Part shown: positions 11,066-50,734 of the stretch, one piece after another | Layout of the letters: every line of letters starts with the position of its first letter | How positions within the stretch are numbered: position 1 is the stretch's first letter | NCBI GenBank assembly: GCA_035685445.1 | Contig: DASSAK010000008.1 | Coordinates: forward strand, 13,131 to 77,130 | Source: Nitrosopumilaceae archaeon | GTDB taxonomy: Archaea > Thermoproteota > Nitrososphaeria > Nitrososphaerales > Nitrosopumilaceae | Direction: 5' to 3' | Length of the DNA stretch: 64,000 nucleotides | The notes under the pieces: generated by a model | Database searches by the model: none | What the model was told of the DNA's origin: nothing | Seen by the model: only the letters and a program-made list of their open reading frames with translations | Translations under genes and position numbers: made by a program

Positions 11066-11182
11066 GATTAGTCTTTATGTTCTTCGCGTTTAATTCGCAA
11101 ATAAATCTTGGTAAAAATAACTTAAAATCCTACGATTTTTTTTGTTTGTTTGTGGGGTCGTAGCCTAGCCTGGTAGGGCGAC

Positions 11183-11209
11183 AGTGTCTACGAAATAGAT
11201 CACCGCTAA
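11183..11209 (+). other. tRNA-Trp intron 1 (27 nt), non-canonical position 28/29 in the 5' strand of the anticodon stem
   Basis: 4-bp helix GGCG(11177-11180)/CGCT(11204-11207) flanked by 3-nt bulges ACA and AAG that contain the splice sites. An inner hairpin GTGTCT/AGA(T)CAC completes a bulge-helix-bulge-like geometry. Confidence 0.65.
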
Positions 11210-11218
11210 GGGCTCCAG

Positions 11219-11270
11219 AGGTTAAACTAAGCTACTGATGAAAAGATGATGTAAGTTTGGAGCTGTAGTG
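11219..11270 (+). other. tRNA-Trp intron 2 (52 nt), canonical position 37/38
   Basis: Bulges AGA and TGA flank helix CTCC/GTAG (one mismatch). An inner helix GGTT/AGCT plus AAAC/GTTT follows. The splice restores the loop CTCCAGA. Confidence 0.6.
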
Positions 11271-11321
11271 ACCCGTAGGTCGCCGGTTCGATTCCGGTCG
11301 GCCCCACGTTATTTTTTAAGA

Positions 11322-15317: not shown

Positions 15318-15728
15318 TTATTTTTTCGAGGTCTTCATAATATAGTTCCAGATTTCTTTTGGAACGGGCATTACGGATAATCTTGAAATTCTCAATAATT
15401 CCCAATTTTTGAATTTTTTTTGTTTTTTTATTTCGGCCAAAGTTACGGGATTTTTTAGTTCTTTTTTATATTTTACATCAACAACAACAAATCTCTTATT
15501 TTTTTCATCTGGATTTGGATATGGATTTGAGGTTACTTCCATGATGCCGACAATTTGCTTTTCACCACCCGAATGATAAAACAAAATTAAATCGCCTTTT
15601 TTCATTGCATTGATATGTTTTAGAGCAAGATTGTTATGAACTCCATCCCAAACTGTTTTCTTATCTTTTTTTAATGAAGAAAAATTGTAACTTTTTGGTT
15701 CCTGTTTGGCTAACCAGTAATTTACCAT
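15318..15728 (-). CDS. EVE (PUA-like) domain protein
   Basis: MVNYWLAKQEPKSY...WDGVHNNLALKHINAMKKGDLILFYHSG is the canonical EVE/DUF55 N-terminus. Confidence 0.7.
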   Translation of the reverse strand: MVNYWLAKQEPKSYNFSSLKKDKKTVWDGVHNNLALKHINAMKKGDLILFYHSGGEKQIVGIMEVTSNPYPNPDEKNKRFVVVDVKYKKELKNPVTLAEIKKQKKFKNWELLRISRLSVMPVPKEIWNYIMKTSKK

Positions 15729-15777
15729 TGTTGGATGTGTTGTAAAGAGTATTTTATTCCTTATCTAAGGAATTTAG

Positions 15778-15957
15778 AAAATAATTGTTCCCCGGTTCTG
15801 ACTCGCACAGGATCATTGGTGATAGCCATTCTCCTCCCTGAGATCTTTAACCGGGGCTGCCCACATGTAGCACATCTGGGTGAATTAGAAATCATTGGCA
15901 TCATTACGATCGACATCATTCTAATCCGTCTATGTGCCTGCTCTAAGGGCACTAAGT
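15778..15957 (-). ncRNA. candidate structured sRNA (~175 nt) of unknown class, possibly containing an H/ACA-like hairpin
   Basis: Roughly 50 percent GC block in an AT-rich genome. Both-strand ORFs here look non-coding. Three hairpins: GTGCC/GGCAC (15934-15952), GGATTAGAA/TTCTAATTC (15882-15927, a G-U on the minus strand but a C-A mismatch on the plus strand), and CCCCGGTT/AACCGGGG (15790-15856). A TTAATATTT element lies upstream and ACA plus a T-run lies downstream on the minus strand. Confidence 0.45.
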
Positions 15958-15964
15958 GATTTAC

Positions 15965-17602
15965 TTAGTCAAATATTAATCCAGATAGTTTGATTTCAAA
16001 TCCCACGACTGGTGCACGAATCTTAAAGTTATCTCTTACTTTAGAATCAATCTCGCCAATAATACCATATGGCTTTCCGTTAACTATGATTTCAGCTGTA
16101 CTACCTTCAGCAAAAGTTGGATGAGATGATGTTTTTGTGTTGCAATCAATGTTAAATCCAGTTTTTAGTGTTGATTGCATGATTGATTTAATTTCAGAGA
16201 AATTAGCATCGTTATGAGCACTAACACAAGCTAAATGAATTTCTTCATTTATTGGAGTACCTTTGGAAAAAACAGTTCCTGTTTCAAATAATTTTTGTGG
16301 ATATTGTTCATGTATATTACTTGAAAGATTGTTGATTAACCCAGCAAGCATAAAATCACGAAGAATCGTATGTTCTTGACTTTTTGAATCCATTACAGAA
16401 ATAATGTTTGATGAATCACGATTAGTAAGATCATAAAGAATTCTTTTGCTAGTTAAACTTGAATTTAGAGCTTCCATGTATCCTAAACCAACCATAGTAT
16501 GACTTAGACTGTTTAGGGTTTCAAATTCATCGTTTTTTTGTCCCAAAGTTTGAGAAGGAGAAAGATTAGGTGTCAGGTTGTCTATCCCATAACCTAAAGC
16601 AACTTCTTCAACTAAATCCATGGTTCCAAATATATCAAATCTATATCGTGGGATTGTGCAAACAATATTCTTGTTTTTTGCAGTAGCATCAAGTCTACAT
16701 TTTTTTAAAGCACTTGCGATTTTTGTTGATGAGAGATTCAATCCCAACATAGAATTTGCTAAATTCTCATTTAGGATGATTTTTCTATTCTTGAATTGCG
16801 GAGTAGAGTTTTTTGCTCCAGAAATTTTTACTGAATTAAGCTCAAATCCAGCACTTTGAAGAACGGTGGCAACAACTGACAACATATCTTCAACATCATT
16901 TTTATCAATCCCTGTAACTTCAACAAAAATATTTTTTGTTTTTGTGGTAACAGTTGTCATTGAAGAATTAATTATTGGTGGAAAAGAAACTGTTTTTCCA
17001 AGTGAATCTAGAATTATTGGTATTTTGGATGAGTTCCCCAAAATATAGCCATAATTTTGACCAACCTCAAAGTTTTTTAGAATTTCAGATATGGTACTTT
17101 CTTTAGTGGAATTGAGTGGAATGAATTTATGATCTCTTGTAGTTGTTGTGTATGATAATGGGAAGGATATTGTATCTAAATCATGAATTCCAATGGAAGA
17201 TTTTCTGCGACGTCGCCCTATACCAAAATGAAGATCCTCTTGCATAACAATGATTTGTCGTAAAACTTTATCGTCGATTTTTGCATTTCTTGCAACAATA
17301 CCTGTAACAAATGGCCTAATTTTGCTTACTGATGAATCAACCTTGATTTGAAAATTGTTTACATTTTTAATTTTTAGTTTTTGAATTCCTTTTTTTGTTC
17401 CAATCAATCCTTGCAAACCTAATGCAATTCCAAAATCAGTAGAATAATCAGGCCGGTTAGGACTGTATTCAACACGGACAAGATCATTTTCTTCAGACTC
17501 TATATCTAAACCAAGAAATGGAAGTTTTTCTAAGATTTTTTTTCTATTTGTTTTTCCAACCAATTTCTGAAGTCTTGGGAGCTCTAGCTCAACTACTGGC
17601 AT
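15965..17602 (-). CDS. pheT: phenylalanyl-tRNA synthetase beta subunit (archaeal type)
   Basis: Track ORF 15965-17623. I prefer the internal MPVVELELPRL start at 17602, which overlaps the pheS stop by 10 nt. Typical archaeal PheT length and B3/4-B5 region. Confidence 0.88.
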   Translation of the reverse strand: MPVVELELPRLQKLVGKTNRKKILEKLPFLGLDIESEENDLVRVEYSPNRPDYSTDFGIALGLQGLIGTKKGIQKLKIKNVNNFQIKVDSSVSKIRPFVTGIVARNAKIDDKVLRQIIVMQEDLHFGIGRRRRKSSIGIHDLDTISFPLSYTTTTRDHKFIPLNSTKESTISEILKNFEVGQNYGYILGNSSKIPIILDSLGKTVSFPPIINSSMTTVTTKTKNIFVEVTGIDKNDVEDMLSVVATVLQSAGFELNSVKISGAKNSTPQFKNRKIILNENLANSMLGLNLSSTKIASALKKCRLDATAKNKNIVCTIPRYRFDIFGTMDLVEEVALGYGIDNLTPNLSPSQTLGQKNDEFETLNSLSHTMVGLGYMEALNSSLTSKRILYDLTNRDSSNIISVMDSKSQEHTILRDFMLAGLINNLSSNIHEQYPQKLFETGTVFSKGTPINEEIHLACVSAHNDANFSEIKSIMQSTLKTGFNIDCNTKTSSHPTFAEGSTAEIIVNGKPYGIIGEIDSKVRDNFKIRAPVVGFEIKLSGLIFD

Positions 17603-18984
17603 TTTGAAACACTCCTTAACCATTTCAAGTTGTTGTTGTAAAACTCTCTAACATCATCTAGTCCATACTTTAGCATCGCAATTCTTTCGATTCCTCCTCC
17701 CCACGCTAGGACAGGTTTTGTGATTCCAAGAGGTTTAGTAACTTCTGGTCTGAAAATTCCCATTCCAAATAATTCTACCCATTTATCTAATCTTTCATTG
17801 TACACCATGGATTGTAATGATGGTTCAGTGTATGGGAAAAATGTTGGCCAGAATTTTACTTTGTTAAGACCCATCCTTTTGTAAAATTCTTGTTGAATTC
17901 CCATCAAATCACGTAATGTGGTATTTTTTCCAACAACTACTCCTTCAATTTGATTAAATTCAACTAGATGTTTGTAGCTAACTTTTTCATTACGAAAAAC
18001 TCTACCTAATGAAAAAACTCTTGCTTCATCTGGTTTGTTTTCAGCTAAATGTTTGATTGTAACACAAGTAGTATGTGTTCTTAAGACCATTTTTCGCGCT
18101 TCATCAATACTCCAAAGATATCTCCATTCTTTTTTGTGAATTTTTGAAACTTGCTGAATTTGTTTTTGAGTCGCAATTTTTTTTGATATTATTCCATCAA
18201 GATAGAATGTATCCTGCATTTCTCTTGCAGGATGATCTTGAGGCGTAAACAAAGCATCGAAATTCCAGAAACTAGGCTGGGTAAGGGTTCCAAGAATTTC
18301 GCTGAATCCAAGTGTGACAAAAATTTCTCTGATTTCATTAATTGTGTCCTTGAGAGGATGTGTTTTAGTAACAAAAACTTGTGGTGCAGCTGCTTCAACA
18401 TCAATGGCTTTTGAAGTATCAGTATCTTCAGAAATTTTAATTTTTTCAGTCAAAGAAATTTTTTGAGACTTTTCAATCTCTTCGGTGATAAAGTTTGGTC
18501 TTTTTTTGAGTGATTCTAAGGCATATTTATCTTCTATTTCCTCAATGAGAACTCTACCAGTTCCAATTTTTTTGATAATTTTTTCTTCCGGTGTTTCGGG
18601 GGGGATATTTTTTAATGAAACGGTTTCTCCATCAGTTTCAACCCAATTATTTTTTCTTGCTATGCCCATTGCAGGACCAAAAATTGATGGTAACTCTTTT
18701 TTTAATTCATTTAATTTCTTTGGTCCGTTTTTTAAAAGATTAAGTAATTTTCTTTCAGGCAAACCTTTAGCATTTGCCTCCAATCCATTTTCACCGAGTC
18801 TGAGATAGACATGTTTTGATTCTTCAATATTTGCTAAATTTTTTAGCTTAAGCCATTCAATTCCCCTTCTAACTTGATCAGGAGTTAAGCCAGTAGAGTT
18901 GCCAATTTTTTCTGGAGTTTGTTTTGGGTTATCATTTAACAATCGGATAATTTTTTTTTCAATCTCATGAAAAACTTGAGACAT
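17593..18984 (-). CDS. pheS: phenylalanyl-tRNA synthetase alpha subunit
   Basis: Class II motifs: FRNEKVSYKHLVEFNQIEG (motif 2 region) and GGGIERIAMLKYG (motif 3). Confidence 0.9.
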   Translation of the reverse strand: MSQVFHEIEKKIIRLLNDNPKQTPEKIGNSTGLTPDQVRRGIEWLKLKNLANIEESKHVYLRLGENGLEANAKGLPERKLLNLLKNGPKKLNELKKELPSIFGPAMGIARKNNWVETDGETVSLKNIPPETPEEKIIKKIGTGRVLIEEIEDKYALESLKKRPNFITEEIEKSQKISLTEKIKISEDTDTSKAIDVEAAAPQVFVTKTHPLKDTINEIREIFVTLGFSEILGTLTQPSFWNFDALFTPQDHPAREMQDTFYLDGIISKKIATQKQIQQVSKIHKKEWRYLWSIDEARKMVLRTHTTCVTIKHLAENKPDEARVFSLGRVFRNEKVSYKHLVEFNQIEGVVVGKNTTLRDLMGIQQEFYKRMGLNKVKFWPTFFPYTEPSLQSMVYNERLDKWVELFGMGIFRPEVTKPLGITKPVLAWGGGIERIAMLKYGLDDVREFYNNNLKWLRSVSKCQ

Positions 18985-24930: not shown

Positions 24931-24981
24931 ATCAAGTGGAGGAGGTGGGATTTGAACCCACGAACCCCTAAGAGACGGGAT

Positions 24982-24997
24982 CACCCATTTTTATGAT
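24982..24997 (-). other. tRNA-Leu intron 2 (16 nt), canonical 37/38
   Basis: Helix CTTA/TGGG (two G-U pairs) with bulges AGA and TGA next to the anticodon stem. Confidence 0.75.
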
Positions 24998-25011
24998 CTT
25001 AAGTCCCGCGT

Positions 25012-25034
25012 GTCCAAAAACTGAAAACAGTTTT
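25012..25034 (-). other. tRNA-Leu intron 1 (23 nt) inside the 3' strand of the D stem
   Basis: Perfect 4-bp helix CCAA(25037-25040)/TTGG(25014-25017), 3-nt bulges AGA and ACA, and an inner 6-bp hairpin AAACTG-TTTT-CAGTTT. Confidence 0.75.
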
Positions 25035-25155
25035 CTTTGGCCAGGCTTGACTACTCCTCCGCTCAAAATAGCAAAAAGATGCTGGAAATTTAACAGTTGA
25101 GTTTTTTCAAAAATTAATCAAGAATTATAAGGATTTTCTACAACCGGAACATATC

Positions 25156-50475: not shown

Positions 50476-50522
50476 ATTAAAATCAGAATGTTTGTATCAT
50501 AAAAATTTGTGTAAAATTAAAA

Positions 50523-50639
50523 ATGCCAGCACTATTGCTTCCCAAGAGCTCTCGCATCTTAGTAACACAACAGCGACATTAGGTTTGACTTCCAAGTTCG
50601 GAATGGGATTGGGTCGCACCCTAACGCTATGGCCGGCTT
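50523..50639 (-). rRNA. rrf: 5S ribosomal RNA
   Basis: The minus strand reads AAGCCGGCCATAGCG..GGGTGCGACCCAATCCCATTCCGAACTTGGAAGTCAAAC...GGGAAGCAATAGTGCTGGC. Helix I pairs GCCGGC/GCTGGC, and the CCGAAC loop C motif is present. Ends are accurate to within a few nt. Confidence 0.9.
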
Positions 50640-50734
50640 GAATAATATTTGTTGGATGGTATCTATTAACCTAACGCAATTTGAACTAAATTTTTAGCCA
50701 AAGAGGTATAAAGTATATACCAACCGTATATCTC

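Follow-up and report, generated by a model that had tools for sequence, protein, structure and literature searches.

Archaeal box H/ACA guide hairpins obey a small set of structural rules. The ACA box directly follows the lower stem, the distal of the tandem G:A pairs of a kink-turn lies 9-10 nt from the base of the upper stem, the target position is about 15 nt (14-16) away from the ACA, and pairing with the target takes place through two guide duplexes of 4-8 nt each (PMC7075261, PMC3608112). The closest known RNA to the one described here is sR-h45 of Haloferax, which belongs to the Pf7 family. Both RNAs hold two H/ACA stem-loops per molecule, are of ~170-210 nt, and have tandem G:A kink-turn pairs in each stem-loop. 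In sR-h45 the 5' unit addresses the peptidyl-transferase loop of 23S rRNA near position 2586 and the 3' unit addresses helix 69, the same two regions that are predicted as targets here (rRNA positions are given in E. coli numbering, checked against the E. coli 23S rRNA). The equivalent of E. coli 2586 is modified in haloarchaea, as Psi2621 in Haloarcula and Psi2605 in Haloferax, where Cbf5 acts with the sR-h45 5' stem-loop (PMC7075261).

Pyrococcus Pf7 / Pab40 and Archaeoglobus Afu-4 are likewise multi-hairpin archaeal H/ACA sRNAs that serve these two 23S regions; the two haloarchaeal units are considered homologous to their stems II and III. On the eukaryotic side, yeast snR3 and snR84 guide the helix 69 stem modifications Psi2264 and Psi2266, which correspond to E. 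coli 1921 and 1923 (human Psi3747 and Psi3749) and are the positions predicted for the 3' unit of the RNA described here. Both belong to the eukaryotic snoRNAs: they carry H and ACA boxes, work with Nhp2 and lack a kink-turn, and no sequence relation to them is claimed. To our knowledge, records of modification at 1921 and 1923 have so far come from eukaryotes only.

Ammonia-oxidising archaea rank among the Earth's most abundant microbes. A full-text literature search, in which all terms were required jointly and 'H/ACA' was not searchable as such, returned no H/ACA guide RNA from this group. Here we analyse a spacer in a stretch of 64,000 nt from a Nitrosopumilaceae genome, hereafter the window. 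The minus strand of about 15783-15951 very probably encodes a box H/ACA sRNA of ~170 nt with two guide hairpins, a reading to which we give a probability of about 0.88. The sRNA is a solid, hitherto unannotated member of the known H/ACA class and not a new kind of system.

Results

The locus and its distribution

The sRNA is located in the spacer between pheT, which encodes the phenylalanyl-tRNA synthetase beta chain (15965-17623, minus strand; Pfam tRNA_synthFbeta, B5 and B3_4 domains), and a gene for an EVE-domain protein (15318-15728, minus strand; Pfam EVE, E 4.5e-44). An earlier note, made from the letters of the window, had singled out this spacer as GC-rich and as the source of a structured sRNA read from the minus strand, with a largest hairpin resembling an H/ACA guide. 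It had also named an Rfam scan, folding, covariation in related spacers and a search of rRNA for complements of the internal loops as ways of checking the proposal. The GC content indeed peaks at 0.48 at 15800-15949, as calculated over segments of 150 nt, versus 0.27-0.35 in the flanking genes (about 0.30), and the limits set for the element in that note (15778-15957) are nearly identical to the stretch conserved in relatives (15778-15954).

The gene order is stable on one side of the element. In all 49 loci checked, the sRNA is immediately preceded by pheT on its own strand; downstream, the EVE gene is found in most of them, not all, and is missing from that position in several genera that retain the sRNA. 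The EVE domain has a PUA-like fold and is linked to the binding of modified nucleic acids; a functional tie between this gene and the H/ACA RNA would be pure speculation. Just upstream of the sRNA, a 7-bp hairpin (ACUAAGU / ACUUAGU; 15952-15970, minus strand) spans the pheT stop codon, and it is not kept in relatives.

A DNA search of 40 relatives recovered the element from 19 more genomes of the host's family, with 15778-15954 as the aligned part. A covariance model built from 19 orthologues detected a single copy in 79 of the 80 genomes sampled in the family, at E values between 1e-22 and 1e-50. Weaker matches were obtained in seven other families of the class (E 1e-11 to 3e-4), and outside the class there were only two weak matches among about 130 genomes of the phylum. 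The sRNA is conserved throughout the ammonia-oxidising archaea, and its distant homologues in the class retain GACGG, ACCCAG, GUCAG and AGA in their guide pockets. The model can be used to annotate the sRNA across the host's family, where one copy per genome is found.

No Rfam family was assigned to the spacer, at gathering or at permissive thresholds; the best match below threshold is SNORA62, an H/ACA snoRNA (21.3 bits, E 0.06, gathering threshold 80). Further H/ACA hairpins were sought in the host genome by other means. A scan for GC islands gave 427 islands and was not discriminating. A descriptor combining lower stem, ACA, kink-turn and spacing gave 64 matches versus 37 in a reversed control, with the 5' hairpin of the sRNA at the top and no other convincing H/ACA hairpin in the genome. 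This descriptor scan is insensitive, since it missed the 3' hairpin of the sRNA itself. A genome pattern scan for a guide to the helix 69 loop returned only matches that look like coding sequence.

Anatomy of the RNA

Comparative analysis resolves the minus-strand RNA into a 5' hairpin, HP1 (15870-15937), a 3' hairpin, HP2 (15790-15856), and a short helix, P0, that encloses HP1 together with its ACA box (all features in this section are on the minus strand). The earlier note had counted three hairpins and had read only the largest, HP2, as an H/ACA unit. Two conserved H/ACA hairpins are indeed found, and its reading of HP2 and of the class was correct; the small hairpin at the pheT stop codon is not conserved, an enclosing helix, P0, is present besides, the 5' hairpin is a second full unit with an ACA of its own, and neither P0 nor any target had been named.

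HP1 has a lower stem GCACAU / AUGUGC (15932-15937 with 15870-15875), followed by an internal loop made of the 5' pocket AGACGG (15926-15931) and the 3' pocket UCACCCAG (15876-15883), both of which are invariant. In the free RNA, the pairs G15927-C15882 and G15926.U15883 are able to close the top of this pocket. The upper stem AUUAGAA(U) / (U)UUCUAAU (15918-15925 with 15884-15891) leads to an invariant motif in which GA (15916-15917) faces AAU-GA (15892-15896). The ACA box (15866-15868), also invariant, is found 1 nt past the lower stem, within the internal loop closed by P0.

In HP2, the 8-bp basal stem CCCCGGUU / AACCGGGG described in the earlier note is present at 15849-15856 and 15790-15797, and its six C-G/G-C pairs are invariant. 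It is followed by the 5' pocket AAAGA (15844-15848) and the 3' pocket AGUCAG (15798-15803), and by an upper stem (15837-15843 with 15804-15812) that is irregular in its lower part. The AAU-bulged GA motif, which the earlier note took for a possible kink-turn, is seen as GA (15835-15836) opposite AAU-GA (15813-15817); it is invariant among the aligned sequences and is continued by a C-stem of GG (15833-15834) with CC (15818-15819). Overall, GAGG, GGCUA, CC-AAUGA and GAGUCAG are invariant or nearly so in this hairpin. The ACA box (15786-15788) was likewise found where it had been described, 1 nt past the stem and followed by AUUAUUUUC, and is invariant. This T-rich tail (15777-15785) is likely an archaeal oligo-T termination site; the 3' flank is T-rich in most orthologues and otherwise not conserved. 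The helix GGAUUAGAA / UUCUAAUUC with its G.U pair also exists as claimed.

P0 is formed by UGCCC (15947-15951), probably the 5' end of the RNA, and GGGCA (15858-15862). Because this helix is poorly aligned by both alignment methods used, it was inspected sequence by sequence, and a helix of 4-8 bp was found in 36 of 36 distinct sequences. Its variants GCCUC/GAGGC and ACCUC/GAGGU preserve the pairing by compensatory changes. A nearly invariant single-stranded AGAGCA (15939-15944) lies between P0 and HP1, across from the ACA box of the latter.

Both hairpins comply exactly with the archaeal rules for the ACA, the kink-turn and the 15-nt distance. From the base of the upper stem to the distal G:A pair there are 10 nt in either hairpin, and the distance from the upper stem to the ACA is 15 in both, made up of 8 (3' pocket), 6 (lower stem) and 1 in HP1 and of 6, 8 and 1 in HP2. 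The hallmarks of the class in stems, pocket, kink-turn, ACA box and spacing are all present and conserved, in support of the proposal of a minus-strand sRNA with an H/ACA-like largest hairpin. The GA motifs of both hairpins are predicted to adopt the three-dimensional fold of a kink-turn and to bind L7Ae. The UGAUG motifs of the RNA were also considered as parts of a C/D-box RNA, a reading that was rejected, since the RNA lacks both a D box and a terminal stem and the motifs make up halves of the kink-turns within the H/ACA hairpins.

The arrangement of the two units varies outside the host's family. In another family of the same order, P0 and HP1 are followed by an AU-rich spacer of ~65-90 nt and then by HP2 (loci L078:95-320:-, L079:95-350:- and L080:95-350:+), which recalls the linker of 56 nt in Haloferax sR-h45. 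A single genome from a further family shows HP2 only, in a 119-nt match to the model with the HP1 region unaligned (L075:60-225:+).

Covariation and strand

Folding of the single sequence gave a z of -2.5 on either strand, only modestly better than shuffled sequences. Since this type of folding cannot separate the strands, both strand and structure were settled by comparison. In a MAFFT alignment of the 19 orthologues, 93.1% of the cells in paired columns are paired and 19 of the 38 pairs have a compensatory change; none of 500 shuffles equalled this, and partners slid along the alignment are only 30-51% paired. In an alignment of 46 distinct sequences, which was fitted to the covariance model and hence leans towards the structure, 94.9% of the cells are paired and 21 pairs are compensatory, with slid partners at 28-50%. 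The covariation sought in the spacers of relatives is present, at 19-21 compensatory pairs and with far less pairing among slid partners.

The support is distributed over both hairpins. Compensatory changes occur in five of the six pairs of the HP1 lower stem and in five of the nine of its upper stem, with 97-99% of the cells paired, and in three to four of the five pairs of the HP2 upper stem. The ACA located 1 nt past each lower stem, together with the GA and NNN-GA motifs, is invariant in all the aligned sequences. The argument made in the earlier note for minus-strand transcription, from a G.U pair that would be a C-A mismatch on the plus strand, extends to several conserved G.U pairs, one of which, in an upper stem, is G.U in 42 of 46 sequences. 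The conserved G.U pairs, the ACA boxes and the GA motifs together fix the minus strand as that of the RNA.

Transcription, proteins and proposed mechanism

The sRNA is probably transcribed from a promoter of its own within the end of pheT, as judged from the TATA-like box TTAATATT (15972-15979, minus strand) within the last pheT codons. In more than ten genera an A/T-rich 8-mer precedes the first nucleotide of P0 by 21-23 nt, with variable sequence between the two. The conservation of this box is ambiguous, since it overlaps conserved codons of the PheT C-terminus.

Metatranscriptomes give evidence on a discrete transcript that is weak either way. In a DNase-treated metatranscriptome, unstranded contigs (100-212 nt) cover conserved segments of the sRNA only and leave the flanking genes uncovered; in another, an unstranded contig of 1000 nt from a relative spans pheT, the spacer and the EVE gene.

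The host genome encodes Cbf5, Nop10, Gar1 and L7Ae, all above the curated cut-offs (Cbf5 at 375 bits). Two further ORFs resemble these proteins. One of 169 aa (contig C63, 31935-32162) aligns with no more of the Cbf5 model than its PUA-domain end, at 30 bits, and one of 103 aa (contig C39, 31050-31316) is a second member of the L7Ae family, at 42 bits, besides the main L7Ae gene.

By analogy with the class, L7Ae would bind the kink-turn that caps each hairpin, and Cbf5, with Nop10 and Gar1, would bind the ACA and the lower stem. The internal loop would pair, through its two strands, with 23S rRNA on both sides of a uridine, and Cbf5 would convert this flanked uridine to pseudouridine. P0 ties the 5' end to the linker and may serve to shield that end or to arrange the two units.

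Predicted target of HP1

Since the 23S rRNA of the host is not assembled and only the first 828 positions of its 16S rRNA are present (contig C5, 35523-36339), the targets were read from the rRNAs of five complete relatives. This search for complements of the internal loops gave candidate sites in 23S rRNA for both hairpins.

For HP1, the best bipartite site in 23S and 16S rRNA is CUGGGU (2579-2584), UUAGA and CCGUC (2590-2594), where ACCCAG of the 3' pocket pairs with C2579-U2584 and GACGG of the 5' pocket pairs with C2590-C2594 (6+5 bp). Only two of 300 shuffled pockets score equally (p about 0.007), for a pairing that leaves five target bases unpaired instead of two. These are U2585, U2586, A2587, G2588 and A2589, and they remain unpaired because U2585 is opposed by a C and the 5' duplex is displaced by two bases. 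An AACCCAG pocket, which would pair through U2585, occurs in more distant relatives within the class. A canonical HP1 target with two unpaired bases was sought in the 16S and 23S rRNA of a relative and in the whole host genome, with nothing convincing obtained; the best 'UN' target of this kind is equalled by 265 of 300 shuffles. The complementarity points to the peptidyl-transferase-centre loop as the predicted target of HP1, with U2585 and/or U2586 as the candidate uridines.

The guide for 2586 in haloarchaea has a 3' pocket AACCC(A/G)G, a stem of the GUGUGCG type and an ANA box, and the corresponding elements of HP1 are CACCCAG, AUGUGC and ACA. In contrast to sR-h45, HP1 leaves U2585 unpaired, with a C in the pocket instead of an A, and its 5' duplex lies at 2590-2594 rather than 2588-2590, with five instead of two unpaired target bases.

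Predicted target of HP2

The best site for HP2 is found in the 3' strand of helix 69, where CUGAC (1916-1920) is followed by U1921, C1922 and UCUU (1923-1926). GUCAG of the guide pairs with C1916-C1920 and AAGA pairs with U1923-U1926, which leaves U1921 and C1922 unpaired and gives a 5' duplex of only 3-4 bp. When the kink-turn and n+15 rules are used to set the limits of the pocket, this site scores 22 versus 13 for the runner-up and is equalled by 4 of 1000 shuffles; with a looser pocket, 67 of 300 shuffles are equal, which is not significant. U1921 is at the canonical distance of 15 nt from the ACA of HP2. The guide bases that take part in the pairing, GUCAG and AGA, are conserved across the class, and in one lineage with AAGG in the pocket the pairing is kept through G.U. 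Helix 69 of these archaea has U at 1921 and 1923 and shares the eukaryote-type sequence. These observations suggest U1921 in the stem of helix 69 as the target of HP2.

Other pairings of HP2 were considered. A role as guide for U1915/U1917 in the loop of helix 69 was rejected, as its 3' pocket lacks complementarity to the 5' side of that loop. In a different register, GAGUCAG would pair with 1916-1922 and UUAA with 1925-1928, which places the target U1923 at 17 nt from the ACA; this register is kept as no more than a possibility: UUAA is not conserved among the orthologues, AGA is.

The 3' units of the sRNA and of sR-h45 differ in their sites. The 3' pocket of HP2 would bind the 3' strand of helix 69, towards U1921 and perhaps U1923, whereas the 3' unit of sR-h45 is directed to 1915/1917 in the loop; its pockets are GAGGGUU and GUUA, those of HP2 AAAGA and AGUCAG. 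A complement to GGGAGUAAC is absent from HP2. The RNAs differ also in the region between the units, with P0 enclosing the 5' unit and its ACA here and a 56-nt linker with a possible pseudoknot in sR-h45. The published sequences of Pf7, Pab40 and Afu-4 show three abutting hairpins, other pocket sequences and no P0.

Discussion

Other readings of the spacer were weighed against that of a two-hairpin H/ACA guide. One is that of a cis-acting mRNA element, in the 3' UTR of pheST or in the leader of the EVE gene, for instance a regulatory kink-turn bound by L7Ae. Such an element would agree with the constant position right after pheT on the same strand and usually ahead of the EVE gene, and with the metatranscriptome contig that covers all three. 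It would, however, give no role to two fixed ACA boxes, to the n+15 spacing or to the conserved complementarity to rRNA. The RNA is also kept in several genera where the EVE gene is absent downstream, the 65-90 nt between the hairpins in another family fit independent guide modules, and the distance to the upstream A/T box is conserved; we therefore regard a cis-acting element as very improbable. The chance that the spacer codes for a small protein appears negligible. The ORFs that overlap it, one of 74 aa (plus strand) and one of 63 aa (minus strand), do exist, but neither has a match in Pfam, in line with their dismissal as noise in the earlier note, and orthologues differ by indels of 1-2 nt. 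The substitutions are paired compensatory changes in stems, so that the pattern is that of an RNA.

Another reading accepts an H/ACA-type RNP and disputes the sites. The RNA would then be an orphan guide, acting on tRNA or on another sRNA, or a chaperone of rRNA folding or processing. The atypical pairing of HP1, with no canonical UN target, and the dependence of the HP2 evidence on how the pocket is delimited both leave room for it, and in Sulfolobus H/ACA guides are known that target tRNA and crRNA, as are pairings with bulges or mismatches. Against this, the two best sites are known pseudouridine positions in other organisms, within the two rRNA regions served by sR-h45, and the pocket nucleotides due to pair are the invariant ones, distant families included. 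The genome-wide scan for canonical HP1 targets gave nothing convincing. An orphan guide or chaperone is in our judgement unlikely, though less so than a cis-acting element.

The reading of a guide for the two 23S regions gives concrete predicted pseudouridine sites in the peptidyl-transferase loop and helix 69, the two most important centres of the large subunit, for an RNA that is an expected part of archaeal ribosome biogenesis. From the likeness of the published sequences, the sRNA may be related to sR-h45 and the Pf7 lineage, which would link a thaumarchaeal guide to those of haloarchaea and Thermococcales.

HP2 further suggests that a modification of the helix 69 stem like that of eukaryotes may exist in archaea. 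The full proposal, that HP2 pseudouridylates U1921 and possibly U1923 (a 'UNUN' target, U-C-U-C) and, jointly, that P0 represents an undescribed organisation of a two-unit H/ACA RNA, is a tentative one, to which we give somewhat less than an even chance. If it is true, a eukaryote-like modification of helix 69 and its guide would predate eukaryotes or would have arisen in parallel, and P0 would correspond, in archaea, to the hinge/H-box arrangement of eukaryotes.

The window contains other RNA genes. The 5S rRNA stands separately at 50521-50640, and two tRNA matches, at 11154-11306 and 24937-25060, are unusually long, at 153 and 124 nt, which implies that they contain introns.
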